Shown here: piece by piece, positions 14,490 through 53,111 of the stretch | How positions within the stretch are numbered: position 1 is the stretch's first letter | How the letters are laid out: every line of letters starts with the position of its first letter | Source of the DNA: Thermoplasmata archaeon | Lineage (GTDB): Archaea; Thermoplasmatota; Thermoplasmata; Lutacidiplasmatales; UBA184 | Direction: 5' to 3' | Length of the DNA stretch: 64,000 nt | Assembly (NCBI GenBank): GCA_021817605.1 | Contig: JAKAUN010000002.1 | Location: forward strand, 3,676 to 67,675 | The notes under the pieces: model-generated | The model's database searches: none | Told to the model about the DNA's origin: nothing | Seen by the model: only the letters and a program-made list of their open reading frames with translations | Position numbers and translations under genes: made by a program

Positions 14490-15911
14490 TCAGAACCCCC
14501 GCTCGAGGATCGAGACGGTCACCGACGAGCCGGTACCGGCGTGGCTGTGGATGGCTCCGCGCTTGGCCCCGGCGATCTGGAGCGTGCCGTCGCCGAAGTG
14601 CTTGTCCACCGTCCCTTGCAGCTGCCAGAGCGCGAAGACGGCCTGCATGAGCCCCGTGGCGCCGACCGGGTGCCCGCAGGCGATGAGCCCGCCGGAAGGG
14701 TTCACGGGGATCGTCCCGGCCTTGGGCACCTCGAGCCCGTAGTCGAGCCCCTTGAGGAACGGCGCTCCGGAGAGGGTGAAGTCGTAGCCTTCGCCGTAAC
14801 GGCAGAGCCCGAGGTCCTCGTAGGTCTGGATCTCGCTCGAGGCGTAGGCGTCGTGCAGCTCGACAAAGTCGAGCTCCTTGATCGGGTTGACGATCCCCGC
14901 CATCCGGTAGGCCTCGAGGCCCGCCGCGCGCCCCGCGCGGAAGGAATGCACACCGGGATAGGAGAGCCCGGCATAGTCGTTCTCGGTCTCGTGGGGGAAC
15001 CGCGGCACCTTGCCGAACGGTCGGTCGGCGAGACGCATCGTGTCGGTGCCGCAGCCGACCCCCGTGACCCGGACCGGGTGATCGGTGAACTCGCGGGCCC
15101 GCGACTCGTCGCAGAGGACCGCGACCGCGGCCCCGTCCGACATCGTGCAGATCTGCTCGCGGGTGAGCGGATAGCTGATCATCTCCGAGGCGAGGACGTC
15201 CTCGACGGTGAGCCGCTTCGGATACTGGGCGTAGGGGTTGTACAGGGCGTTGAGGTGGTTCTTCACCGAGACCCAGCTCATGATCCGCTGGCCCTCGGCG
15301 ATCGCGCGGCGCTGCGCCTCGCGCTCGTCGGTGATCCCGGCGAACTTGCCCCGGCGCAGGTACTCGTAGATGTGCCGGACGACCATGAGCGCGTAGTAGC
15401 CGGTGTAGAAGCCGCCGAGGGGGAAGTCGAAGTTCGTGTCGGAGGCGAGGGCGATGAACTCGTTGCCCTTCCAGGTCGCCACCCGGCTCATCGTCTCGTA
15501 GCCGGCAGCGAGGCAGACGTCCATCCGTCCGCTCGCCACGGCCTCGTAGGCGGCCTGGAAGCACTCGCCGCCGGTCGCTCCGCCCCACTCGATACGGACC
15601 GAACCCTTCGGGTTGAGCCCGAGGTAGTCCTGGACCATGCTCGCCGCCTTGAGCTGCCGGGAGAAATGGTCGGAGAAGTAGGAGATCCGCGAGCCGTCGA
15701 TCCGGTCCCTCGTCAGGTTCGGGGTGTCCTTGAGGGCGTAGTCGTAGGCTTTCTTCACCATCAGGCGGAAGTCCATCCCCGGATGGGCCTTGGCGAACTT
15801 CGTCACCCCGCCCGTAACGAGGTAGACCTTCCTCCCGGTCGACGCATGGGGACTTTCCGGATCGCGCCGCGACTCGGGGCGACGCTCCGGCGATGACGCT
15901 GTGGCGGACAT
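14490..15911 (-). CDS. Thiolase-superfamily protein, SCP-x/archaeal acetyl-CoA C-acetyltransferase type
   Basis: 473 aa; VYLVTGGVTKFAK...GGECFQAAYEAVASG...GHPVGATGLMQAVFALWQL are thiolase hallmarks. The N-terminal ~30 aa before VYLV may not be translated. Confidence 0.85.
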   Translation of the reverse strand: MSATASSPERRPESRRDPESPHASTGRKVYLVTGGVTKFAKAHPGMDFRLMVKKAYDYALKDTPNLTRDRIDGSRISYFSDHFSRQLKAASMVQDYLGLNPKGSVRIEWGGATGGECFQAAYEAVASGRMDVCLAAGYETMSRVATWKGNEFIALASDTNFDFPLGGFYTGYYALMVVRHIYEYLRRGKFAGITDEREAQRRAIAEGQRIMSWVSVKNHLNALYNPYAQYPKRLTVEDVLASEMISYPLTREQICTMSDGAAVAVLCDESRAREFTDHPVRVTGVGCGTDTMRLADRPFGKVPRFPHETENDYAGLSYPGVHSFRAGRAAGLEAYRMAGIVNPIKELDFVELHDAYASSEIQTYEDLGLCRYGEGYDFTLSGAPFLKGLDYGLEVPKAGTIPVNPSGGLIACGHPVGATGLMQAVFALWQLQGTVDKHFGDGTLQIAGAKRGAIHSHAGTGSSVTVSILERGF

Positions 15912-17048: not shown

Positions 17049-17498
17049 CTATTCCGACGCGGCTCCCGCTTCCGCGCGCAGGCGGACCTTGAGAAGACGC
17101 TCGAGCTTGCGCACGAGCTCGTCCGGCGGGTGGATGCCCCCGGTCTCGACCTTGAGGACGACCGACTTCTTCTCGTTGAGACGCTTGCCGAGCTCCTCGG
17201 GGGTCCAGCCGAGGCCCTCGCGTGCCAGGCGGACCCGGCGGCCCCAGTCGGGGGCGAGCTCGAGCTCGCCGATCTCCGTGTAGAGGTCCCGCTCCTCGAG
17301 CCGACGCGGTCCGGCCGAGGCGCGCGTCGCCCCGACGGCCGGGCGGGGGCCGGAGCTCGTCGCCGCCGCGGCCGTCGCGGGGGGCGGATCGAGCGGGGTC
17401 CCGAACTTGGCGCACTCGGCGCAGAGCGAGAGCACCGAGCGCTCGATGCGCACCCGGCTCGTCGCCTCGACCTCTTTGCCGCACATCTCGCAGAGCAT
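17049..17498 (-). CDS. mbf1: Multiprotein-bridging factor 1 family transcription cofactor (N-terminal Zn ribbon plus C-terminal XRE HTH)
   Basis: MLCEMCGKEVEATSRVRIERSVLSLCAECAKFG zinc ribbon and a C-terminal HTH (GWTPEELGKRLNEKKSVVLKVETG). Confidence 0.8.
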   Translation of the reverse strand: MLCEMCGKEVEATSRVRIERSVLSLCAECAKFGTPLDPPPATAAAATSSGPRPAVGATRASAGPRRLEERDLYTEIGELELAPDWGRRVRLAREGLGWTPEELGKRLNEKKSVVLKVETGGIHPPDELVRKLERLLKVRLRAEAGAASE

Positions 17499-17987
17499 CT
17501 ACGGAACCTCCCCGCGCCGACGGGAGCGGCGCCGCTCCTCGGTCCTCCGTCGCCCCTCCTCGAACATGGCGCGCTCCTCCTCCGTGAGGGGGTGAAGCGG
17601 CGGAACCGCGGTCGGGCGGCCGTCCCGGTCGACCGCCACCATCGTGACGAACGCGTCGCCGACCTTGCGGACCGGCCCACCCTCGACCGCGCGCGAGGAG
17701 ATGCGCACCACCACTTCCATCGAGGTCCGGCCGGCGAACGTGAGCTCGCCGGAGAAGTCGACGACCTCGCCGACGTGCACCGGAGCGAGGAAATCGACAC
17801 GGTCGAAGGACGCCGTCACGCACGTCCGCTGGGCATGGCGGCTCGCCGCGACGTAGGCGACCCGGTCGACCTCGGCGAGGATCACCCCGCCGAAGACGTT
17901 CCCCATGAAGTTCGCGTCGCTCGGGACCATGAGACGAACGACCGACGCGCGGCTGGCGGCTACGGTTCCCGCGGACGGTTCGCTCAA
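17499..17987 (-). CDS. Acyl-CoA thioesterase, hotdog fold (YciA-like)
   Basis: VVRLMVPSDANFMGNVFGGVILAEVD..., cf. E. coli YciA LVLRTLAMPADTNANGDIFGG. Start is TTG at 17987 or the internal ATG. Confidence 0.8.
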   Translation of the reverse strand: MSEPSAGTVAASRASVVRLMVPSDANFMGNVFGGVILAEVDRVAYVAASRHAQRTCVTASFDRVDFLAPVHVGEVVDFSGELTFAGRTSMEVVVRISSRAVEGGPVRKVGDAFVTMVAVDRDGRPTAVPPLHPLTEEERAMFEEGRRRTEERRRSRRRGEVP

Positions 17988-18346: not shown

Positions 18347-21300
18347 CTAGGGCACTTCCTTGCGGTCTGCGCACGCCGCGTCCGTGGGACGGTCCTCGTC
18401 TCCCGCGGTCTGCCCCCCAAGAGCAGCTCCCGACCGGGAGGCGCCCGCCGCGGCCAGGAGCAACGTCGTCGCGAGAGCGGCTGCCGCGGGGAGCGCGAGC
18501 CCGGCACCGCCCACCGGCCCGCCGACCGACAACGCGGACGGAAGGCGGGGGAGCGCGGGGGGGTTCATGGTGACGTTGACGAGCTGCCTCGGAGACGGCG
18601 CGTGGAGCACCGCAATCGTTCCGCTGGCAGGGGTCGGGGCCTGCGTGTTCGCGACCCCCACGGTGTAGGTGTAGTTGCCTATCGGCAAGAGGAAACGGAT
18701 GACGCCCTTGCCGGCGAGCTTCGAAAGGGTCGTGGGGAAGGTGAGCGCCGGGGTCGAGCCGGTCGCGATCGTGACCGTCCAGGTCGCCCCAGCCTGTAGG
18801 CCCTTCTCGCGGAAGACGATCGCCTCGGTCAGTAGGCGGAACTTCACCACCTTGGTGAGGGCATGCTTGGGAACGTGGAACCCACCCTTGGCCGGCAGGA
18901 CCTTGTACTCCGCTCCCGGGCCGGCGATCGCGAAGTGGAAGGCGGCGCCGGTCGGTAGGGAGAACGATATCGAGGTGCCGGTCGATGTCTTCGACTGGCC
19001 GGCGGGTCCGCCGTGGGGGAACGCGGGGGTGAGATCAACTCCCCAGGTCGACCCCGCGTACTTCTGGAACTTCGCTAGCGAGCTCTGGTTGAAGGTGACC
19101 GTCTGGAGGTGCCCGAAGATGACCGTCCACGTGGCGACCCCCGACAGCGAGTAGGTCGGGGTCCCGTAGGTCTGGTTGGGCGACCCCGGACCCGCGATCC
19201 TGGCGACCCCCCATCCTGCGGGCCCACTGATGTTGTAGACGAGGGCGCCTGCCGCCTCCGAGAACGAGACCGAACCTGTCGACCCGGTCCCGGTCGTCAC
19301 CGTGGTGTCGCTCCTCACGATCCCGAGAACATCCACCGACCAGAGCGCCCCGGCCGGGAGGTGGAGCTCCCGGAAGCGCAAGGTGTGCCCGAGCGACGCC
19401 GTGAAGACGATGGGGATGTTCACGGGGCTCCCGCTGATCGAGAACTGCCCGCCGTAGAGGCTCGCGGCGAACCCCGGCACGAAGGGGATGGTGAAGTTGT
19501 AGCTGATGTTTTGGGCGTCCATGACCATCGCGTCGGGAGCCGGGGCGGTCGCCGTCACCGTGCCCGGAGGCGTGCCGAAAGCATGGCCGATCGAGAGCGA
19601 CCAATTCGTCCCGTTCGGGAGACCGGTCTCCGTGAACGTGGCGAGTTCGCCGGCTAGCAGGCTCGAGTTCGTCACCGCGTAGGCCTTCGACCAGTAGACG
19701 CTGGTCCCCGCGAACACGTTCTCTTGGAGGGTGATCGTGGTGAGCCCGTTGAAGCAGTCCGTCGCCTCGATGGACGCCGTCGGCACGACACTGGCGGCGC
19801 AGCTAGCCGCCGACTGGCTCGCGCCGTTGGACCCGGACGTGCTGGTCCCGATCAGCACGTTGTGGGCTGCCATCTGCGCCGTCCCGATGAGGAAGATCCC
19901 CGGCGCCCCGCTCGCCGCGTTGTTGACCACGTTCGCATCCACGGTGGTGATTCCCGTGCCTTGCGGCTCGGTCACGATGCCGTAGGCGAGGCTGTCGGTC
20001 ACGGTGTTGCCGTCGATCGTCGCCGGGGCGCCCGCGATGCCCGCGTAGCTCGAGGTGTACATCGCATACAAGATTCCGACCGAGCTCGAGCCCACGTGGT
20101 TCGCCTCGATGTTGCACGTCAAAGCCCCCGGAGCACATCCGGCCCAGATCGCCGACGATTGGGTCTGGGTGAAGTAGGAGCCGCCGGTCTCGAAGGAGAA
20201 GCCGCGGACGGTGTTGCCTGAGACGGTCACCGAGCTACCCCAGACGATGATCCCGCCCTCGGAGGCCGCCGTATCGGCTGCCCCTGGGCCGAGAACCGTG
20301 TTGCCGATCACCGAGAAGGTCCCGGTGGGCTCGACCGACGTTGCGGGGAAGATGTCGCCCGCCTCGATCCCCACCGGGCCGCCGGGGCCGGCCCCGCCGG
20401 CTCCGAGCGTGACCGTCGAGGATTCGATCGTGGCGCTCGTCAGGGCGGGGGCCACGATGATCCCGTTGACAGCGCCCGTTCCGAGCGTCGTCGCGTCCTT
20501 CACCGTGACCCCGTTCGCTTGGACCCCGATCGAGTTGCCGTCGCTCGGGTAGCCCGTCGTGTTGATCGTGAAACTCGCCCCGTTGAGCGTGCTGTCGGCC
20601 CAGTAGTCCGTAACGTTGCCCGCAAAGCTCGAGCGCAACGTGGCGACCGTGCCGGCTACCGACACCAGGCTGGCGTTCGTCGGGATCCCGCTCGAGCTCA
20701 GCACGAGCTGGCCGGGAGCCGCGTGGACGAACACGAGCACCGGCTCGACCACCGCCGAGCCGCTGACGGAGCCAACACCCGGGGTGATCAGCGTGTTCTC
20801 GTACCACCCGCCAATCGCTCCGATGCCGTAGGAGAACGATCCGTTCTGGAGATCGCCGACGATCGACGCCGGCGCGGGAACGTTGGCCGTGGTGCCGTTC
20901 ATCGTCACGGACCAGTCGAGGCCCGGGGTAAGGCCGCTCTCGGACCACGTAACATGCTCCCCACCCCGCTGGAACGAAGTCGCCGGGTAGGTCGGGAAGG
21001 TCGCCGTCCAGTCCGGCGCGTTCGTCTGAGCGAAGATGTTGGCGTTCAGCGTGACCTCGGTCGCGGGGTTGAAGCAATCGGTGGCCTCGACCGACGCGGT
21101 CGGGATCGTCGAAGCGACGCAGCTCGCCTGACCTTGGAGCGCCCCGTTGGTGCCGGTGGTGTTCGTCCCCAGGAAGACGTTCCCGGTCAGCGAGAAGGTC
21201 CCTCCAATGAGATAGGCGCCTGGGGCGCCGCTGGGAGCACTGGCGAACGTGTTGGACTCGACCAGGGAGACTCCCGCGGCCCCGGTGGGCTCAAGGACCA

Positions 21301-22240
21301 TCCCGTAGGCGAGGCTGTTGGTGATGGTGTTGTGCAGGACCACTACGGCCGATTGAGCGATGCTCCCAAAACCGGAGGTCATGAGGGCGTAGACGATGCC
21401 GATGCCGTTCGTGTTGAGGGTGTTGGAGTTGATGTCGCACGCAGGCGCGCCTACGGCGCAGCCGGCGAGGATCCCCACGGACTGGGTGTCCTGGAACCAT
21501 GAGGAGTAGGTATTCGCACCGGAGGTCGTGGTCGTGTCCAGGGAGAATCCGCTCACCGTGCTGTTGGTGATCGCGACGGAGTTTCCGTAGACGACGATCC
21601 CGGTCTCGCCGGCGGTGCCTCCCGCACCAGGACCGACGACCGTGACCGCGTTCACGACGAAGGTGCCCGTGGGCTCGACCGCCGTGGCCGGGAATACGTT
21701 GCCGAGCTGAATCCCCAGAGCCGTCGTGCTTCCGGCGGCGAGCGTCACCGTCGAGCTTTCGATCGTCGCCGAGGAGGTGACGAGCGAAGGCGCCGCAAGG
21801 ATCCCGTCCGTGCTGCCGCTCGAGATCGTCACGAAATTCTGCACCGTGATGCCGTTCGCCTCGAGGCTGAGAGCCGCGAGGTCGGTGGGATACGCCGTCG
21901 CGTTGACCACGCACCCGGAGCCGTCCAGCATACTGTTGGCAAACGAATCAGAAAGGTTGCCCGAGAAGCCCTCGAGCACCGTCACCACCGAACCGTTGAC
22001 GGAGACCGCTGTCGGGTCGCTCGAGACCCCTCCGGCAGAGATGGTGACCGTCCCGAGACTACCGGCGGAGGGGCAGGCGGCCAAGGTGGAGAAGGCAGGC
22101 CCTCCCGGCGCCGATCCGACGGAGGACCCGAGGAAGGGGCCCGCGCCGGCAATCGTGGGGGCAAGGGCGAACCCCACCACCGCGAGGAGGCCGACCAGGG
22201 CCGCCCGGACCACCACGCGTCGAGGGGCGCTCATAGCCAC
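18347..22240 (-). CDS. Large secreted surface protein, an S-layer/cell-envelope glycoprotein candidate: signal peptide, two tandem ~440-aa beta-helix-like modules, C-terminal domains and a C-terminal transmembrane anchor
   Basis: 1297 aa. N-terminal Sec signal MAMSAPRRVVVRAALVGLLAVVGFALAPTIAGAG. Composition is T/S/G/A/N/V-rich with GNTV/NTVT-like beta-helix rung motifs. About 20 N-x-S/T sequons. Conserved Cys pairs C261/C268, C374/C389 are repeated as C702/C709, C814/C829. C-terminal hydrophobic helix LALPAAAALATTLLLAAAGA followed by a charged tail. Confidence 0.8.
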   Translation of the reverse strand: MAMSAPRRVVVRAALVGLLAVVGFALAPTIAGAGPFLGSSVGSAPGGPAFSTLAACPSAGSLGTVTISAGGVSSDPTAVSVNGSVVTVLEGFSGNLSDSFANSMLDGSGCVVNATAYPTDLAALSLEANGITVQNFVTISSGSTDGILAAPSLVTSSATIESSTVTLAAGSTTALGIQLGNVFPATAVEPTGTFVVNAVTVVGPGAGGTAGETGIVVYGNSVAITNSTVSGFSLDTTTTSGANTYSSWFQDTQSVGILAGCAVGAPACDINSNTLNTNGIGIVYALMTSGFGSIAQSAVVVLHNTITNSLAYGMVLEPTGAAGVSLVESNTFASAPSGAPGAYLIGGTFSLTGNVFLGTNTTGTNGALQGQASCVASTIPTASVEATDCFNPATEVTLNANIFAQTNAPDWTATFPTYPATSFQRGGEHVTWSESGLTPGLDWSVTMNGTTANVPAPASIVGDLQNGSFSYGIGAIGGWYENTLITPGVGSVSGSAVVEPVLVFVHAAPGQLVLSSSGIPTNASLVSVAGTVATLRSSFAGNVTDYWADSTLNGASFTINTTGYPSDGNSIGVQANGVTVKDATTLGTGAVNGIIVAPALTSATIESSTVTLGAGGAGPGGPVGIEAGDIFPATSVEPTGTFSVIGNTVLGPGAADTAASEGGIIVWGSSVTVSGNTVRGFSFETGGSYFTQTQSSAIWAGCAPGALTCNIEANHVGSSSVGILYAMYTSSYAGIAGAPATIDGNTVTDSLAYGIVTEPQGTGITTVDANVVNNAASGAPGIFLIGTAQMAAHNVLIGTSTSGSNGASQSAASCAASVVPTASIEATDCFNGLTTITLQENVFAGTSVYWSKAYAVTNSSLLAGELATFTETGLPNGTNWSLSIGHAFGTPPGTVTATAPAPDAMVMDAQNISYNFTIPFVPGFAASLYGGQFSISGSPVNIPIVFTASLGHTLRFRELHLPAGALWSVDVLGIVRSDTTVTTGTGSTGSVSFSEAAGALVYNISGPAGWGVARIAGPGSPNQTYGTPTYSLSGVATWTVIFGHLQTVTFNQSSLAKFQKYAGSTWGVDLTPAFPHGGPAGQSKTSTGTSISFSLPTGAAFHFAIAGPGAEYKVLPAKGGFHVPKHALTKVVKFRLLTEAIVFREKGLQAGATWTVTIATGSTPALTFPTTLSKLAGKGVIRFLLPIGNYTYTVGVANTQAPTPASGTIAVLHAPSPRQLVNVTMNPPALPRLPSALSVGGPVGGAGLALPAAAALATTLLLAAAGASRSGAALGGQTAGDEDRPTDAACADRKEVP
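19406..22000 (-). repeat. Intragenic tandem duplication, two ~1.3-kb modules (aa 81-500 and 526-945 of the surface protein)
   Basis: Collinear matches with offset 440-450 aa: GNLSDSF/GNVTDYW; ESSTVTLAAG/ESSTVTLGAG; TVSGFSLDT/TVRGFSFET; AGCAVGAPACDI/AGCAPGALTCNI; SLAYGMVLEP/SLAYGIVTEP; SCVASTIPTASVEATDCFN/SCAASVVPTASIEATDCFN; ESGLTPGLDWSVTMNG/ETGLPNGTNWSLSIG. Confidence 0.7.
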
Positions 22241-24097: not shown

Positions 24098-24724
24098 GTG
24101 CTCGCCCCCGGGGCCGGTCGCTTTCTTCTGCCGGTCGCCCTGCTCCTTTTCCTCGACCTCGTTCTCCTCCTCCTCGGAACCCCGCCTCTCGGAGCGGCGG
24201 GCTTCGGGCTCGCGGCGGTCCTTGTCGGTCTTTTCGGCTTCTTCGCCGTCTTCTTCCGCGATCCCGAGCGGAGGGTCGGGGAGGGGATCGTTTCCGCCGC
24301 GGACGGCCGCATTCGGGCCGTCGAGCGGCTCGGGGAGCGCTGGCTCGTCTCGGTGTTCATGAACGTCACCGACGTTCACGTGAATCGCCTCCCCTTCGAT
24401 GCGACGGTCGAGGCGATCGACGCTCTGGGCGAGGGGTTCCGCCCCGCCTACCGCCACGACGCGGAGGCGAACGTTAAGCGTCGCTACCGGCTCGCCACGT
24501 CGCTCGGCACGGTGGAGGTCGTCCAGATCACCGGGATCCTGGCGCGTCGCCTGGTCCCGTTCGTCCGGGTCGGGGACTCCGTGGCGAAGGGAGCGCGGCT
24601 CGGCATGATCGTGCTCGGCTCGCGGGTGGACGTGCTGCTGCCGGCGGAGAGGACCGAGCCGACGGTCCGTGTCGGGGACCGGGTCGTCGCGGGGGTCACC
24701 ACGATCGCGAGGGTCCGGCCGTGA
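24098..24724 (+). CDS. asd: Archaeal-type phosphatidylserine (archaetidylserine) decarboxylase proenzyme
   Basis: N-terminal TM segment, FFRDPERRV...IVSAADGRI motif, and an LGS self-cleavage-type motif (MIVLGSRVD) near the C-terminus. ~208 aa, the small PSD type. Confidence 0.75.
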   Translation: MLAPGAGRFLLPVALLLFLDLVLLLLGTPPLGAAGFGLAAVLVGLFGFFAVFFRDPERRVGEGIVSAADGRIRAVERLGERWLVSVFMNVTDVHVNRLPFDATVEAIDALGEGFRPAYRHDAEANVKRRYRLATSLGTVEVVQITGILARRLVPFVRVGDSVAKGARLGMIVLGSRVDVLLPAERTEPTVRVGDRVVAGVTTIARVRP

Positions 24725-25464
24725 CGGACCGCTGGCGTGTCGGCGCGAACCTCGCCACCCTCGGCAACGGCCTTCTCGGAGTCGGCGCGGTCCTCTACAC
24801 GGTCGCGGGCAACAAGCTCTGGGCGATGCTCCTCATCACCCTCGCCATCGGGCTCGACGGACTGGACGGGCTGCTCTCCCGCCGGAGCGGCTCTGCGCCC
24901 GGGGCGTTCGGGCGCATCGCCGACTCGGCGGCGGACGCCGTCTCCTTCGGGGTCGCTCCCGCCGTCCTGGTCGCTGTGCACACCTCGGAGGTCGGCCTCT
25001 GGGCCCCGTACGCGACGCTGACGCTCCTCGCGGCCCTCGTCTACCTCGGCGCCGCCGTCGCGCGGTTGGCCTACTTCACCGCCCGAGCCCACGCGCTCCC
25101 GCACTTCCTCGGCATCCCGAGCCCCCAGGCGGCCCTCGCGGTGATCGTGACGGGGCTGTTCCTCGACACGCCGGCGCTCGCCCGGGTGGACCCGGCCGTC
25201 ACGGTCGCCGTCGTGCTCGCCATCGCCGTCCTCATGCTCGTGCCCGTGCCCTATCCGAAGATCCGGCGCGGGAGCCCGCTGCGCTGGCCGATGGCGACGA
25301 CCGCCGCCTTCGGGGCCCTCGCGCTCGTCCCCCTCCAGTTCCGCCTCGGCCGAGGGAGCCCGCTCTACGACCTCGCCTCCGCGGGGGCCTGGGGGCTCCT
25401 GGTCGGGGTGGCCGCCTATTACCTCGTGGGACCGTTCACGCTGGGTCGGCGAAAGGAGGGCTAG
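24721..25464 (+). CDS. pssA: CDP-alcohol phosphatidyltransferase, probable archaetidylserine synthase
   Basis: Multi-TM. DGLDGLLSRRSGSAPGAFGRIADSAADAV matches the D-x2-DG-x2-AR...G-x3-D-x3-D motif. ATGA overlap with the upstream decarboxylase. Confidence 0.75.
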   Translation: MTDRWRVGANLATLGNGLLGVGAVLYTVAGNKLWAMLLITLAIGLDGLDGLLSRRSGSAPGAFGRIADSAADAVSFGVAPAVLVAVHTSEVGLWAPYATLTLLAALVYLGAAVARLAYFTARAHALPHFLGIPSPQAALAVIVTGLFLDTPALARVDPAVTVAVVLAIAVLMLVPVPYPKIRRGSPLRWPMATTAAFGALALVPLQFRLGRGSPLYDLASAGAWGLLVGVAAYYLVGPFTLGRRKEG

Positions 25465-47118: not shown

Positions 47119-48141
47119 TCAGCCCGGGGTCGGCTGGCGAACGACGGCCTTGCGCCCGTAGCGCCAGGACCCCTCGATGGCGTAGAGGCGCCGCAGCCTC
47201 GTGTCGACCCGGCCGCCTAGCCGGATCTCACCCGGCTCCGTATCGGTGAGGGCCACCGTGGCTCGGAGACCGTCGGCGAGCGCGACGAGCGCCACCCCGT
47301 AGGGCCCGACAGCGGCGACCTGCTCGTCGAACTCGGTAGGCTGGCCTCCGGGGCCGATCCAGGTGAGCGCGACGACCTCGAGCCCGTCTCGGGGGAGCGA
47401 CTCCGCGGTGAGCGTGTCCGCCCGGCCGCAGCGGCGGCAGCGACCCCGGGAAGGGAAGCTGAGTGTCGAGCAGGAGCGGCATCTCTCGCCGGAGAACCTC
47501 CAGCGGCTGGCGACGGCCTCGAGGTAGCTCGCCCGCGGGACGTAGGCGCCCTCGGAGACGGCCGCCGACGGGAACGCCGGCGGTCCCTGGGGGGGCGGAG
47601 GACGTCCCACGGCAGGGCTAGCCGCCCAGTCGCCCACCCAAGCTTTCGCCGCGGCTGCGTCGGCCCGTTGGGCGATCGGGACGAGCGCGGCGAGCTCCTG
47701 CCCCGGGAGGGGAGCTGTCCCCGCGGGGAGAAGGCTCGCCGTCGAGGAAGGGAGCTCGTCGACCAGGAGGGCAAAGGCCCCCTCGCCCGGGGGCGGGACG
47801 GCCGACGCGGGGGAGCCCGAGGCCTCCTCCACGGCACCGACCAGCAGTTCCGGTCCGGCTCCGTGGGAGGCACGTTCGAGGGCGTCGGCAAGGGGGGAGG
47901 CGGTCGGGTCGGGCGCGGGAACCACCGTCACGCTCTCGCCGAGGATCCCGGCAAGCAGCTCCGGAGGGAGGGCCCGTGCGGCGCCGACTTCCCGGATCGT
48001 CCAGGCGGGTGGCCTCGAGGTGCTGCCGGCTAGTAGCCGCTCAAGCGCCGTCGCCACCAGCGTGAAGGCGTCCTCGTCCCAGGAGCGGACGCGGCGCCGG
48101 CCGTCGGTGCGGGTGGGGAGGTAGGCGGCGGCCCGCAGCAC
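47119..48141 (-). CDS. DUF35 OB-fold/zinc-ribbon protein with ~200-aa low-complexity N-terminal extension
   Basis: C-terminal CRSCSTLSFPSRGRCRRCG zinc ribbon plus OB fold. The N-terminus AAAYLPTRTDGRRRVRSWDEDAFTLVATALERLL recalls the start of HMG-CoA synthase, but the rest is an A/P/S-rich linker. Confidence 0.7.
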   Translation of the reverse strand: MLRAAAYLPTRTDGRRRVRSWDEDAFTLVATALERLLAGSTSRPPAWTIREVGAARALPPELLAGILGESVTVVPAPDPTASPLADALERASHGAGPELLVGAVEEASGSPASAVPPPGEGAFALLVDELPSSTASLLPAGTAPLPGQELAALVPIAQRADAAAAKAWVGDWAASPAVGRPPPPQGPPAFPSAAVSEGAYVPRASYLEAVASRWRFSGERCRSCSTLSFPSRGRCRRCGRADTLTAESLPRDGLEVVALTWIGPGGQPTEFDEQVAAVGPYGVALVALADGLRATVALTDTEPGEIRLGGRVDTRLRRLYAIEGSWRYGRKAVVRQPTPG

Positions 48142-48157
48142 CCCGCGCGTCGTCCTC

Positions 48158-49321
48158 TCACCCCACCGAGTAGATCGTCACGGCGCAGGTCGCCCCGGCC
48201 CCGCCGACATTGTGCGTGAGCGCGCTTCGGGCCCCCGGGACCTGGCGGGGGCCGGCGCTCCCGCGGAGCTGGTGGAAGACCTCGTAGGCCTGAGAGACGC
48301 CCGTCGCTCCGATCGGATGGCCCTTGGCCTTGAGCCCCCCGTCGGGGTTGACAGGGATCCGGCCGTCGCGGCGCGTCGCCCCCGAGAGGGTGAGGGCTCC
48401 GGCCTCCCCACGGCCGGCGAAGCCGAGGTCCTCGAGGGCGAGGAGCTCGGCGATCGTGAAGCAGTCATGGACCTCGAGGAAGGAGATCGACCCACGCTCG
48501 GCCCCGGCGGAGCGGAAGGCGGTCTCGGCGGCCCGTCGGCTCGCCTCGAAGCCGGTGAGCTCGGCCCGCTCCTGCACGGCGAGGCGGTCGGAGGCCGCCC
48601 CGATCCCGTCGACGTAGACCGGCGTGTCGGTGTACCGTTTCGCCGTTTCGGTCGAGGCGAGGAGGACGGCGGCGGCCCCGTCGCTCACCGGACAGCAGTC
48701 GTAGAGCCCGAGCGGATCGGCGACCCGGGGGCTGCGCAGGGCCTGTTCGCGCTCGATGCGCTTCTGGAAGTGCGCGTTCGGGTTGAGCGCGCCGTTCTCG
48801 TGGTTCTTGACCGCGACCTCGGCGAGGGCCTCGCGCCCGAGCCGGTAGCGGTCGAGATAGGCCGAGGCGAGAAGCCCGTAGACCCCGGCGAAGGTGAGCC
48901 CGGCCTGGCGCTCCCACTCGGTGTCGCCCGAGACACCGAGCCAGAAGCGGCGGCGGGCGTTGGAGACGTCGGTCATCTTCTCGAGGCCCGCGACGAGGAC
49001 GAGGTCGGCCGACCCCGAGGCGATGGCGTGGACCGCCTCGTGAAGCGCAAAGCCGCCGGACGCGCAGGCGTTCTCGACCCGGACGCAGGCCAGCCCGGGG
49101 ACGCCGAGCTCCTCGGCGAGCAGGGCGGAGGAGTTGCCGATCTGCCAGCCGCCGAAGCCCAGCGACGCGAGGTAGCTGCGGTCCACCGCCGACGGCTCGA
49201 AAGCGCGGTCGACGCTGCCGAGCGCCTGGCGCACCGCGCTCCCCAGAAGGGCCCGGGGTCCCTCGGGAAGGACGCCGAACCGGGTGTGCCCCGCCCCGAC
49301 GATCGCCGCGCGATGCACCAC
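48158..49321 (-). CDS. Archaeal acetyl-CoA C-acetyltransferase (thiolase)
   Basis: 387 aa. AAIVGAGHTRFG, NACASGGFALHEA (Cys active site), GHPIGATGVSQ, NVGGAGATCAVTI. Confidence 0.9.
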   Translation of the reverse strand: MVHRAAIVGAGHTRFGVLPEGPRALLGSAVRQALGSVDRAFEPSAVDRSYLASLGFGGWQIGNSSALLAEELGVPGLACVRVENACASGGFALHEAVHAIASGSADLVLVAGLEKMTDVSNARRRFWLGVSGDTEWERQAGLTFAGVYGLLASAYLDRYRLGREALAEVAVKNHENGALNPNAHFQKRIEREQALRSPRVADPLGLYDCCPVSDGAAAVLLASTETAKRYTDTPVYVDGIGAASDRLAVQERAELTGFEASRRAAETAFRSAGAERGSISFLEVHDCFTIAELLALEDLGFAGRGEAGALTLSGATRRDGRIPVNPDGGLKAKGHPIGATGVSQAYEVFHQLRGSAGPRQVPGARSALTHNVGGAGATCAVTIYSVG

Positions 49322-49387
49322 GTCTTCCCCGTTGCACGAACCGTCTTAACGCCTCAGTCGCTGCGCCGGCCGGGCAGCGGGGCCAGG

Positions 49388-49963
49388 GTGGGCGACGATC
49401 GTCCGTTGGTCGTGGGAGTCACGGGAGCGAGCGGAGCCCCGATCGCCGTGCGGGTCCTCGAGGCCCTGCAAGGGGCCGGCGTGCCGGTCGCCCTCGTCCT
49501 CTCGGAGGCCGGGCGGGCGGTCCTCCGGGCCGAGACCGACCTCGAGCCGCTCGCCGTCGAGCACCTCGCGGGCGTCACCTACCGCGACGACGACATCGCC
49601 GCCCCGATCGCCAGCGGCTCGCGCGCCACCCGAGGGATGGTCGTGGTTCCCTGCTCGGCGTCGACCGCGGCGAAGATCGCCGTCGGGCTCGCCGACACCC
49701 TGCTGACCCGGACCGCCTTCGTCCACCTCAAGGAGCGACGGCCGCTCGTCCTGGTTCCCCGCGAGACGCCGATGCCCAGTGTCCTCCTGAGGCACCTCGC
49801 CGCGCTCAGCGAGATGGGGGCCGTCGTCCTGCCGGTGAGTCCCCCTTACTACCTGCGGCCGAGGTCGCTCGCGGACCTCACCGACTACATGGCCGGCAAG
49901 GTCCTCGACCACGTCGGAGTGCCGCACCAGCTCTACCGTGGCTGGCGCGAGCCCGAGGAGTAG
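49388..49963 (+). CDS. ubiX: Flavin prenyltransferase UbiX-like (prenyl-FMN synthase)
   Basis: GTG start. PLVVGVTGASGAPIAVRVLEAL...VALVLSEAGRAVL...MVVVPCSASTAAKIAVGLADTLLTR. Confidence 0.85.
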   Translation: MGDDRPLVVGVTGASGAPIAVRVLEALQGAGVPVALVLSEAGRAVLRAETDLEPLAVEHLAGVTYRDDDIAAPIASGSRATRGMVVVPCSASTAAKIAVGLADTLLTRTAFVHLKERRPLVLVPRETPMPSVLLRHLAALSEMGAVVLPVSPPYYLRPRSLADLTDYMAGKVLDHVGVPHQLYRGWREPEE

Positions 49964-51545: not shown

Positions 51546-53111
51546 ATGGCGCGGATCCGAAGAGGCTCCACAGTCCGGGAGGCGGACCTCCTTTCGCGAG
51601 CCAAGGCGCTGAGGTCGAGCGTCGAGCCGCTGCTCCCGCGGCTCACCGCCGAGTGCCCGACCGAGCGGTTCGACCGTCTTCGGCAGGAGCTCGAGGAGGT
51701 CCGGGCCGCACGCGAGGACGACAAGCGGCTCACGCGTCTCTCCCGCTGGGGGGATCCTCTCGCCCGGGCCTACGCCGGCCTGCTCAAGTTCGCCCTCGAA
51801 CCGACGGCGCCCGCGGTGGTCGCCTTCGAGATCCCGGGTGGCGAGGTCTCCTTCGCGCCGCTCGCCCGCACCGACCGGGAGGCAGAGGTCGCGGTGCAAC
51901 AGTCGGACGACCCGGGACGCCTGCTCCTCGGCTACCTCACCTGGGGGAAACGCGGCTTTCACTTCTTCGCGACCCGCAAGACGCTCTGGTGCACGGGACG
52001 CTCGCCGACCCCTCCTGAGGAGTTCCTCGCGGAACGGATCGCCGAGCAGCCGTACCGCCTCATCGAGAACGCTGCGGAACGACGGTTCGACTGCCCGCAC
52101 CTTTCCAGCGGAGAGCCTCGACCCTACCTCGAGGTCGGCTGGGTCGGCGCGGACCGGCGGTTCCGGGTCTGCCGCCGCTGCGCGAAGGAGGGCCGTCAGC
52201 TGCTCTCGAGCCTGTCGGAAGGGGCGCTCGGGCCGGACCCCGTCGCGGAGTTCCCCGTCGCGGCCTCGCTCAACGTCCGCTGCTCCGGCGGGCAGGCGTG
52301 CGTGCACGCCGTCCTCCCGGAGCTGCCCCGCCCGCTCCGCCAGAGCTACGAGCGAGGGCGCCTTTCGGACGCGCAGCTGATCGACGAGTACCTCCTCGAG
52401 CTCAGGCCGCGTCTCGAGCGGGTGAGCCGGCCGACGTTCGTTGCCGGCGGGGTCTGCTACGGCTCCGATCTCTCGGGCTTTCTCCAGGCACTAGATCCCA
52501 CCCCGGCCGAACGGGCCGCGCTCGAGACGGTCCTCGGCGGACGCCCCGGGCTCTTTGAGGTGGACGAGCCGTCCGCGAGCCGGGCGCTCGAGAAGCTCTG
52601 GGCGTCGCACGCGGAGGAGATCGTCTCGGCGATCGTCCACGACCCGAAGGAGGCCCGACGGCTCGTCGACCAAGCCCGCGGCGCCCCGGGGCGCGTCGCG
52701 GAGATCCTCAAGCGCGCCCAGCGCCAGAGCGAGACCCGGGAGCTTCTGGGGACCTTGCCACAGTACGCTTCGCTCGCCCCCGAGGCCGCGTGGGCGGACC
52801 GGATCGCCCGCGTCCATCGCACCGGAGGGGATGCGGCCGCCGAGCGCGCCGTCACCGAGTCGCTCCCCCGCGAGGGCAAGACCCGCGGGCTCGCCTACGG
52901 GATGCTCCTCGCCATCGGGCGGACCGGCCCGCATGCCTGGCAGTTCTCCCCGACGGAGAAGGAGTTCGGCCAGTCGCTCGAGCCGCGGGCCCGTGCGCTC
53001 CTCGGCTCGACGCCGGAGGGCTACCACGAGGCGCTCGGCGCCCTCCTTACCGCCGCCGGCGTCGCGGGGTGGGGAACTCTGGCGGCTCCCAACGTTCCGC
53101 GCGAAGGGTAG
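51546..53111 (+). CDS. Conserved hypothetical cytoplasmic protein, 521 aa, with central Cys-rich segment
   Basis: Protein-like composition throughout. Cys cluster FDCPHLSSGE...RVCRRCAKEG...VRCSGGQACVHA. No family recognised. Confidence 0.55.
   Translation: MARIRRGSTVREADLLSRAKALRSSVEPLLPRLTAECPTERFDRLRQELEEVRAAREDDKRLTRLSRWGDPLARAYAGLLKFALEPTAPAVVAFEIPGGEVSFAPLARTDREAEVAVQQSDDPGRLLLGYLTWGKRGFHFFATRKTLWCTGRSPTPPEEFLAERIAEQPYRLIENAAERRFDCPHLSSGEPRPYLEVGWVGADRRFRVCRRCAKEGRQLLSSLSEGALGPDPVAEFPVAASLNVRCSGGQACVHAVLPELPRPLRQSYERGRLSDAQLIDEYLLELRPRLERVSRPTFVAGGVCYGSDLSGFLQALDPTPAERAALETVLGGRPGLFEVDEPSASRALEKLWASHAEEIVSAIVHDPKEARRLVDQARGAPGRVAEILKRAQRQSETRELLGTLPQYASLAPEAAWADRIARVHRTGGDAAAERAVTESLPREGKTRGLAYGMLLAIGRTGPHAWQFSPTEKEFGQSLEPRARALLGSTPEGYHEALGALLTAAGVAGWGTLAAPNVPREG

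Follow-up and report, generated by a model that had tools for sequence, protein, structure and literature searches.

In a 64,000-nt stretch of a Thermoplasmata archaeon genome (assembly GCA_021817605.1, contig JAKAUN010000002.1, positions 3,676 to 67,675; hereafter the window), a thiolase gene with an intact catalytic set (T2) is followed by a gene that joins an apparent remnant of 3-hydroxy-3-methylglutaryl-CoA (HMG-CoA) synthase (HMGCS) to a DUF35 module, and in related genomes a canonical HMGCS is encoded elsewhere, beside a thiolase whose catalytic residues are gone. We consider it probable (roughly 60%) that an ancestral thiolase/HMGCS/DUF35 module was duplicated and that its copies degenerated in opposite ways in soil and peat Thermoplasmata, including Candidatus (Ca.) Lutacidiplasmatales. 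One copy (A), elsewhere in the genome, would have kept a live HMGCS with a dead, well-conserved structural thiolase and a DUF35 protein, and the other (B), in the window, a live thiolase with a dead HMGCS remnant, fused to DUF35 and later halved. The features of the locus in the window are as follows.

48158..49321, minus strand: thiolase T2, 387 aa, of the archaeal acetoacetyl-CoA-thiolase type (SCP2-like)
47119..48141, minus strand: fusion protein, 340 aa, starting 16 nt past the thiolase stop
47542..48141, minus strand: N-terminal ~200 residues of the fusion, a truncated, predicted dead HMG-CoA-synthase-like half domain (pseudo-HMGCS)
47119..47529 (stop codon included), minus strand: C-terminal DUF35 module of the fusion, a Cys4 zinc ribbon and OB fold
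About 49386..49963, plus strand: UbiX-family flavin prenyltransferase, ~192 aa, divergent from the thiolase
49337..49351, minus strand: conserved promoter-like element CGTTAAGACGGTTCG, 16-30 nt upstream of the thiolase start codon

The thiolase, the 340-aa DUF35-bearing protein and UbiX are real genes, as their third-position GC of 0.86-0.93 indicates; the G+C content of the window is about 70%. UbiX exceeds the cutoffs of TIGR00421 (203 bits, cutoff 109) and NF004685 (200 bits, cutoff 188). Its start, the GTG of 'MGDDRPLVVGVTGASG' at 49386, was picked from the length of the proteins in relatives (183-193 aa), and the divergent spacer between thiolase and ubiX is 64 bp. The stop and start codons of thiolase and fusion gene overlap or lie no more than 16 nt apart, both in the window and in relatives, which suggests translational coupling; 48158-49321 and 47119-48141 probably form a two-gene operon of a competent thiolase and its dedicated partner.

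T2 matches Pfam Thiolase_N and Thiolase_C_1 and scores 448 bits against NCBIfam PRK06064 (cutoff 420). Its catalytic set is intact, with Cys86 in ENACASGG, His285-Asp-Cys287-Phe as the HDCF motif (EVHDCFT) and Gly-His335-Pro as the GHP motif (KGHPIGATG), and the combination of CAS, HDCF and GHP is kept in all 84 of the 84 orthologous T2 loci. The best relatives of solved structure are the P. furiosus thiolase (7YVY, 265 bits) and the thiolase of the M. thermolithotrophicus complex (6ESQ_A, 237 bits). T2 is accordingly annotated here as a putative acetoacetyl-CoA-type thiolase that is likely to be catalytically competent. In a neighbour-joining tree, the T2-type thiolases form a clade of their own outside all HMGCS-operon thiolases. 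Set against the archaeal mevalonate-entry complex, the locus is predicted to have the intact SCP2-type thiolase and the DUF35 subunit and to lack an HMGCS that bears the catalytic tetrad.

The partner of T2 had been described in the original prediction as a fused or extended DUF35 protein. It is not simply extended. The C-terminal ~130 residues form a DUF35 zinc ribbon and OB fold, although as a single sequence the protein stays just under the gathering thresholds of two Pfam DUF35 models (24.7 against 27.1 bits and 20.5 against 23.2 bits), which are its sole matches in Pfam; it matched no HMGCS model there and nothing in NCBIfam. With a profile of 37 family members, the C-terminal third aligned to the DUF35 chain 6ESQ_E (E = 7e-17) and residues 7-136 to HMG-CoA synthases over their N-terminal half (5HWQ, E = 3e-5; E. 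faecalis HMGCS, E = 0.018). AlphaFold gave a model of high confidence (predicted local distance difference test, pLDDT, 89; predicted template modelling score, pTM, 0.89). Foldseek matched its C-terminus to PhlB (best), the 6ESQ DUF35 and the BbsA-type DUF35 subunit of benzoylsuccinyl-CoA thiolase with a probability of 1.0, and the TM score (target) of the DUF35 part was 0.79-0.80.

The zinc-ribbon residues C221, C224, C235 and C238 are invariant in 37 fusion homologues, and in the same alignment the N-domain has no conserved cysteine. The motifs that survive in the N-domain are those of an HMGCS N-terminus, AAYLP corresponding to GSYIP and DEDAFT to DEDTAT. When the window family was aligned to the haloarchaeal protein P0229 (hhalign probability 95%) and from there to 6ESQ_I, non-catalytic residues came to stand at the Glu82 and Cys114 positions of HMGCS, and His238 and Asn270 fall in the part that is missing; the 340-aa protein does not have the complete five-layer fold of the thiolase superfamily. 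Judged by these residues, the N-terminal ~200 residues are a truncated HMGCS-like half domain that is predicted to be catalytically dead. A decaying pseudogene was considered and rejected, as the open reading frame (ORF) is intact in all 72 complete loci, the motifs are invariant and the fold is confident.

The fusion belongs to a family of over 355 Thermoplasmata proteins, 330-365 aa long, which come from metagenome-assembled genomes (MAGs) and carry the annotation 'OB-fold' or 'hypothetical'. When the full library was searched with the profile of the N-domain, 135 representatives were found, in three groups: short forms like that in the window, long forms (417-500 aa), and fusions of an HMGCS-like domain to DUF35 (HMGCS-like::DUF35) of ~480 aa. 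Among 72 complete loci, 51 encode short fusions (306-392 aa) and 21 long ones (417-482 aa). By profile-profile alignment, ~95 residues are missing from the short form in the stretch from its positions ~143 to ~161. The long forms are orthologous to it, and one of them (P0147) has a thiolase gene before it and, after it, the M61 peptidase gene that also follows in other relatives. The model of a long form (pLDDT 89) retains a complete HMGS-like fold, with 263-301 residues aligned and MucA, then PhlA, as the best structural matches; the long forms, too, fall under the cutoffs of the curated HMGCS models. The ~480-aa group is haloarchaeal and matches PRK04262 at E = 1e-27 to 1e-42, below its cutoff.

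These haloarchaeal fusions (465-496 aa) have the same fusion order and match the N-domain profile of the window family, but their HMGCS-like domain is of full length. The three that were looked at (P0222, P0225 and P0229, the last residue by residue) have no catalytic Cys. They are widespread in cultured Halobacteria (P0363-P0481) under the names 'zinc ribbon domain-containing protein', 'ACP synthase' and 'hydroxymethylglutaryl-CoA synthase', of which the last is probably an over-annotation.

Pfam scans covering the large ORFs whose third-position GC pattern is coding-like found no canonical HMGCS in the window. When the 510 ORFs of 60 aa or more in the six frames were searched by phmmer with two canonical archaeal HMGCS queries, one from M. 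thermolithotrophicus and one from Thermoplasmata, no match was better than E = 0.13. The profile of the fusion family was too specific for use on the window, where it missed even the stand-alone DUF35 described below. The absence of HMGCS from the window, as originally claimed, thus holds for a canonical gene but not for the vestige fused to the second DUF35. The original prediction turned on there being no canonical HMGCS next to either pair just outside the window, and in more than 80 relatives there is none within 8-10 kb of the fusion locus.

The canonical gene lies elsewhere. The archaeal HMGCS motif E-S-x-P-Y-A-V-K-P was back-translated with G+C-rich codons and metagenome contigs were scanned with it. 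All 120 matches are canonical HMGCS genes, and wherever there was enough flank the HMGCS is followed by a thiolase and usually then by a small DUF35 protein. One HMGCS type of 350 aa is 85-100% identical across the best 120 database matches, and its named carriers are almost all 'Thermoplasmata archaeon' MAGs. It retains all four catalytic motifs (GSESHPYAVKP, EFACKAGT, FHQPNGKF and GNTYS) and scores 534 bits against PRK04262 (cutoff 244) and 522 bits against TIGR00748 (cutoff 353). Exact-sequence look-up found both modules in two MAGs. In GCA_035623855.1 the fusion locus is on DASPSQ010000006.1 and the HMGCS (P0277) on DASPSQ010000003.1; in GCA_052326305.1 the fusion locus is on JBKQPJ010000017.1 and the HMGCS (P0258) on JBKQPJ010000006.1. 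The G+C contents within these pairs are 0.672 versus 0.679 and 0.713 versus 0.704. One of the two options originally offered, an HMGCS encoded elsewhere, is therefore borne out in two related genomes, and the window's own genome would be expected to carry such an operon as well.

The canonical operon has the order helix-turn-helix (HTH) protein, HMGCS (350 aa), thiolase (389 aa) and DUF35 (162-163 aa). Its thiolase is 43% identical to T2 by BLASTP (51-53% in a MAFFT-based identity matrix), and its catalytic residues are replaced: the nucleophilic Cys by Gly (VEGGGASG), HDCF by HDAY, FDGY or DDSY, and GHP by GRP, GQP, GLP or GMP. Between genomes whose HMGCS are 84-87% identical, this thiolase is 75-85% identical. 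It is predicted from these substitutions to be catalytically dead, yet it is not decaying, and the dead operon thiolases form one clade in the neighbour-joining tree. The idea that the window holds merely a paralogous module unrelated to mevalonate entry was dropped once the HMGCS-operon thiolase proved to be without catalytic residues.

Several further observations concern the canonical operon. About half of 84 HMGCS-adjacent thiolases from high-GC metagenome contigs are without the catalytic Cys, the GHP His or both, in patterns such as GAC|HDNF|GQP, DAS|HDSF|GNP and GAS|...|GRP, and these cluster as a single clade in the thiolase tree; a live HMGCS with a dead thiolase next to it may be a common combination beyond this Thermoplasmata lineage. 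A 225-aa protein with faint HTH_31 and HTH_19 matches directly precedes the HMGCS operon in all clade members seen and may be a regulator of mevalonate entry. An HMGCS (P0328) that is 86% identical to that of the clade lies on a 796-kb contig that bears the label 'Candidatus Acidiferrales bacterium' but is probably archaeal and either mislabelled or mis-binned.

The known archaeal thiolase/HMGCS/DUF35 complex is encoded by three genes. Here there are two, with the HMGCS part reduced to a dead half domain fused to DUF35, and the live HMGCS is found in a second module with a dead thiolase. That complex is seen as an energetic fix, in which the uphill thiolase step is pulled by channelling its product into HMGCS. 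In the 2018 structure of an archaeal complex, the thiolase and HMGCS clefts reportedly form one CoA-binding site and DUF35 holds the enzymes together. With the live HMGCS and the live thiolase in separate modules, channelling within one complex cannot operate as described. As the thiolase encoded with HMGCS is predicted to be dead, acetoacetyl-CoA has to be produced or brought in by a different enzyme; for this T2 is the best candidate, and a role in mevalonate entry is plausible. T2 would most likely carry out 2 acetyl-CoA <-> acetoacetyl-CoA + CoA for the cell and supply acetoacetyl-CoA in trans to the separately encoded HMGCS. Each live enzyme would keep its dead partner because the CoA-binding site and the assembly are jointly built, and a CoA site formed by thiolase, HMGCS and DUF35 together is the probable reason why the dead partners are retained. 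In the archaeal complex, replacement of the Glu-Cys-His-Asn (E-C-H-N) tetrad of HMGCS or of the His of HDxF abolishes HMG-CoA formation, and a bacterial acetyl-CoA acetyltransferase (ACAT) retains acetoacetyl-CoA cleavage although its HMGS-DUF35 fusion partner is inactive (PMC12960953).

Other points count against two reciprocally degenerate modules. Without channelling, the condensation is thermodynamically unfavourable. Another live thiolase, for example of the beta-oxidation type, may supply or consume acetoacetyl-CoA. Copy A is known from two related MAGs and not from the window's genome, and binning can mix contigs. The neighbour-joining tree is crude and leaves the order of duplication and loss unsettled, and it is by inference that we arrive at complex formation and at the retention of dead subunits. 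Lutacidiplasmatales are predicted to use fatty acids (PMC9287336), and condensation of acetyl-CoA to acetoacetyl-CoA was not seen in vitro with the bacterial analogue (PMC12960953).

A bolder version, which we offer tentatively, is that two obligately complementary pseudoenzyme complexes run mevalonate entry, the dead subunits completing the CoA site and perhaps docking the modules so that channelling is restored, with ubiX co-regulated in an isoprenoid regulon. Such a split design could be common in uncultured archaea, given that about half of the sampled HMGCS-operon thiolases are without catalytic residues.

If the reciprocal degeneration of the two modules is true, a widespread lineage (546 related genomes) appears to have dismantled the thiolase/HMGCS machine into two half-working copies, and the universality of channelling in archaeal lipid synthesis would be called into question. 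The lineage would also provide a natural case of reciprocal pseudoenzyme retention in which the idea of a jointly built CoA site can be tested. For annotation it would be a trap: the 'acetyl-CoA acetyltransferase' next to HMGCS is probably inactive in these genomes, and the real thiolase is annotated beside a 'hypothetical' or 'OB-fold' protein, so that pathway reconstructions in Thermoplasmatota should allow for split thiolase and HMGCS modules. The system is of a known kind, but the reciprocal live/dead pattern appears to be new, as we found no description of it in the literature searched; nor did we find anything relevant there on mevalonate or HMGCS in Lutacidiplasmatales or Thermoplasmatota.

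The strongest rival reading is that T2 and its dead-HMGCS::DUF35 partner act as an acetoacetyl-CoA (short 3-ketoacyl-CoA) thiolase whose function is catabolic or housekeeping only and has no part in mevalonate synthesis, with HMGCS being fed by beta-oxidation or another enzyme. It draws on the closest characterised analogue, the ACAT/HMGS-DUF35 of Pseudomonas fluorescens (PfACAT/HMGS-DUF35; Nat Commun 2026, PMC12960953). As in the window, an active ACAT (Cys, HDxF, GHx) is there combined with a fused HMGS-DUF35 protein that lacks the E-C-H-N tetrad, and no polyketide synthase (PKS) or non-ribosomal peptide synthetase (NRPS) genes are nearby. This complex, the only characterised one of the design, cleaved acetoacetyl-CoA and made none; it makes no HMG-CoA and has been interpreted as an evolutionary intermediate whose primary function was lost (PMC12960953). 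Growth on fatty acids, which is predicted for Lutacidiplasmatales (PMC9287336), and the position of T2 outside the HMGCS-operon thiolases in the tree fit the catabolic reading too. The bacterial protein has a full-length HMGS domain, however, whereas the form in the window is halved and its host needs the mevalonate pathway, and the reciprocal module with live HMGCS and dead thiolase co-exists with the fusion locus in the Thermoplasmata relatives, unlike in P. fluorescens. With a dead thiolase in the HMGCS operon, acetoacetyl-CoA must also come from another enzyme; among the loci and contigs covered, T2 is the only live ACAT-type thiolase seen, and it is universally kept (546 relatives), with its catalytic motifs in 84/84 loci. 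We therefore regard the purely catabolic reading as unlikely.

A second alternative is improbable, namely that the pair forms the centre of a different assembly organised by DUF35, for example an archaeal fatty-acid-synthase-like one, in which the half HMGCS docks a reductase or dehydratase. In Sulfolobus acidocaldarius, a ketothiolase, a reductase and a dehydratase are joined into one assembly by a DUF35 protein, and several thiolase/DUF35 pairs are frequent in archaea (bioRxiv 10.1101/2024.07.05.601840). That assembly is likewise a DUF35-organised thiolase complex, but it has no HMGCS-derived domain and other partner enzymes (bioRxiv 10.1101/2024.07.05.601840). The N-domain of the fusion is derived from HMGCS and not from any known docking module, and neither a reductase nor a MaoC dehydratase was found in the Pfam-annotated 10-kb flanks of three relatives or among the scanned ORFs of the window.

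Still less probable is a C-acyltransferase of the Phl/Muc type that transfers acetyl to a non-CoA acceptor, with the HMGS-like subunit being structural. The structural matches point in this direction, the long-form fusion being closest to MucA and then PhlA and the DUF35 part to PhlB. In the PhlACB and MucABC Friedel-Crafts acyltransferases (5M3K, 9VBO), which acylate small-molecule acceptors, the thiolase-like subunits PhlC and MucB lack HDxF and have remodelled pockets (PMC12960953), whereas T2 is ACAT-like, with HDCF and GHP in 84/84 loci. T2 scores 237-265 bits against archaeal ACATs and only 104 bits against PhlC, far lower, and no PKS or NRPS genes are found nearby. Finally, the suggestion in the original prediction that the extended DUF35 protein itself replaces HMGCS catalytically is hardly credible, for although its N-domain is homologous to HMGCS it has no conserved Cys nucleophile or Glu, the His/Asn-bearing half of the fold is deleted, no Pfam or NCBIfam HMGCS model matches it, and a canonical HMGCS is present in relatives.

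Relatives of the locus were collected by scanning species-representative genomes with the thiolase alignment, and the best 80 of 546 relatives were fetched. The scan returned only the clade itself and no sister lineages. The best 80 of the 546 T2 orthologues are 66-84% identical and all come from 'Thermoplasmata archaeon' MAGs from soil, peat and acid soil, one of them labelled Ca. Lutacidiplasmatales; the G+C content of Lutacidiplasmatales is about 69% (PMC9287336). The order ubiX (-), thiolase (+), fusion (+) is found in every relative whose contig reaches that far. The surrounding genes are conserved as well, with a GATase in 72/72 loci, a 521-aa protein in 62/65, a TP-methylase in 61/62, Usp in 59/61 and the tetraether lipid synthase Tes in 43/44; the small-ORF neighbours are likewise conserved, and the syntenic block measures 15 kb. 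Because the remaining block is equally conserved, the adjacency of UbiX and thiolase carries no specific functional signal, and the link from UbiX to isoprenoid synthesis that had been drawn from neighbourhood is unproven. A UbiD of the ubiquinone/menaquinone type next to ubiX in relatives would have pointed to another role; no UbiD was found within 8-10 kb of the locus in the Pfam-annotated flanks of three relatives, nor among the window ORFs of at least 400 aa in general Pfam scans, no search having been aimed at UbiD in either case. A simple rearrangement of one mevalonate-entry cluster, as first proposed, does not describe the locus, which is one of two paralogous modules and whose T2 lies outside the HMGCS-operon thiolases.

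The spacer between thiolase and ubiX contains the element CG(A/T)TAAGACG(G/A)TTCG at -30 to -16 of the thiolase start in most of ~80 loci. From its position and composition it may be the TATA-like promoter box of a leaderless thiolase mRNA. Most relatives have a second AT-rich box (e.g. GTTAAGAGGCTTCAACGA) towards ubiX, ~35 nt upstream of the conserved one. The spacer in the window (49322-49385) lacks this second box and has only the partly palindromic CGTTAAGACG.

Three further features of the window belong to the first thiolase-DUF35 pair and to the neighbourhood of the fusion gene.

14490..15911, minus strand: thiolase-like protein T1 of the first pair, 473 aa
13954..14487, minus strand: stand-alone DUF35 protein of the first pair, 177 aa
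44203..45912, minus strand: tetraether (glycerol dialkyl glycerol tetraether, GDGT) lipid synthase Tes (NF045702, 569 bits)

The thiolase, the DUF35-bearing protein, the divergent UbiX and the first pair lie at or near the positions originally given. Both thiolase-DUF35 pairs of the original prediction are present, but they are not equivalent. T1 scores 621 bits against PRK06365, under the cutoff of 695, and is 28% identical to T2. Its aligned motifs are EWGGATGG, with Gly at the Cys position, HDAY in place of HDCF, and GHP. Having no nucleophilic Cys and HDAY for HDCF, T1 is probably no ordinary thiolase, and of the two 'thiolases' in the window only T2 is predicted to be catalytically competent. 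The DUF35 protein of the first pair matches Pfam OB_ChsH2_C (55.6 bits, cutoff 27.1). A 4HBT acyl-CoA thioesterase (17499-17987, minus strand) and an HTH protein (17049-17498, minus strand) lie 1.1-2 kb from T1.

The genes near the fusion locus in the window are Tes, a GATase and the 521-aa protein, which has no Pfam match. Tes is located 1.2 kb downstream of the fusion gene and lies no more than 8 kb from the thiolase in 43 of 44 relatives, some of which have a variable insert (M61 peptidase, ABC transporter) between fusion and Tes. The gene of the 521-aa protein (51546-53111, plus strand) is next to that of the GATase in 62 of 65 relatives as well, where the protein is 479-522 aa long.

Farther away, a phosphatidylserine decarboxylase (24098-24724, plus strand) and a CDP-alcohol phosphatidyltransferase (24721-25464, plus strand) share a 4-nt overlap, and the pair at 24098-25464 is probably an archaetidylserine synthase/decarboxylase head-group pair. 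A Thr/Ser/Gly/Ala-rich protein of 1297 aa (18347-22240, minus strand) has an N-terminal signal-like segment, a C-terminal hydrophobic segment and an internal duplication, and is probably a surface protein.

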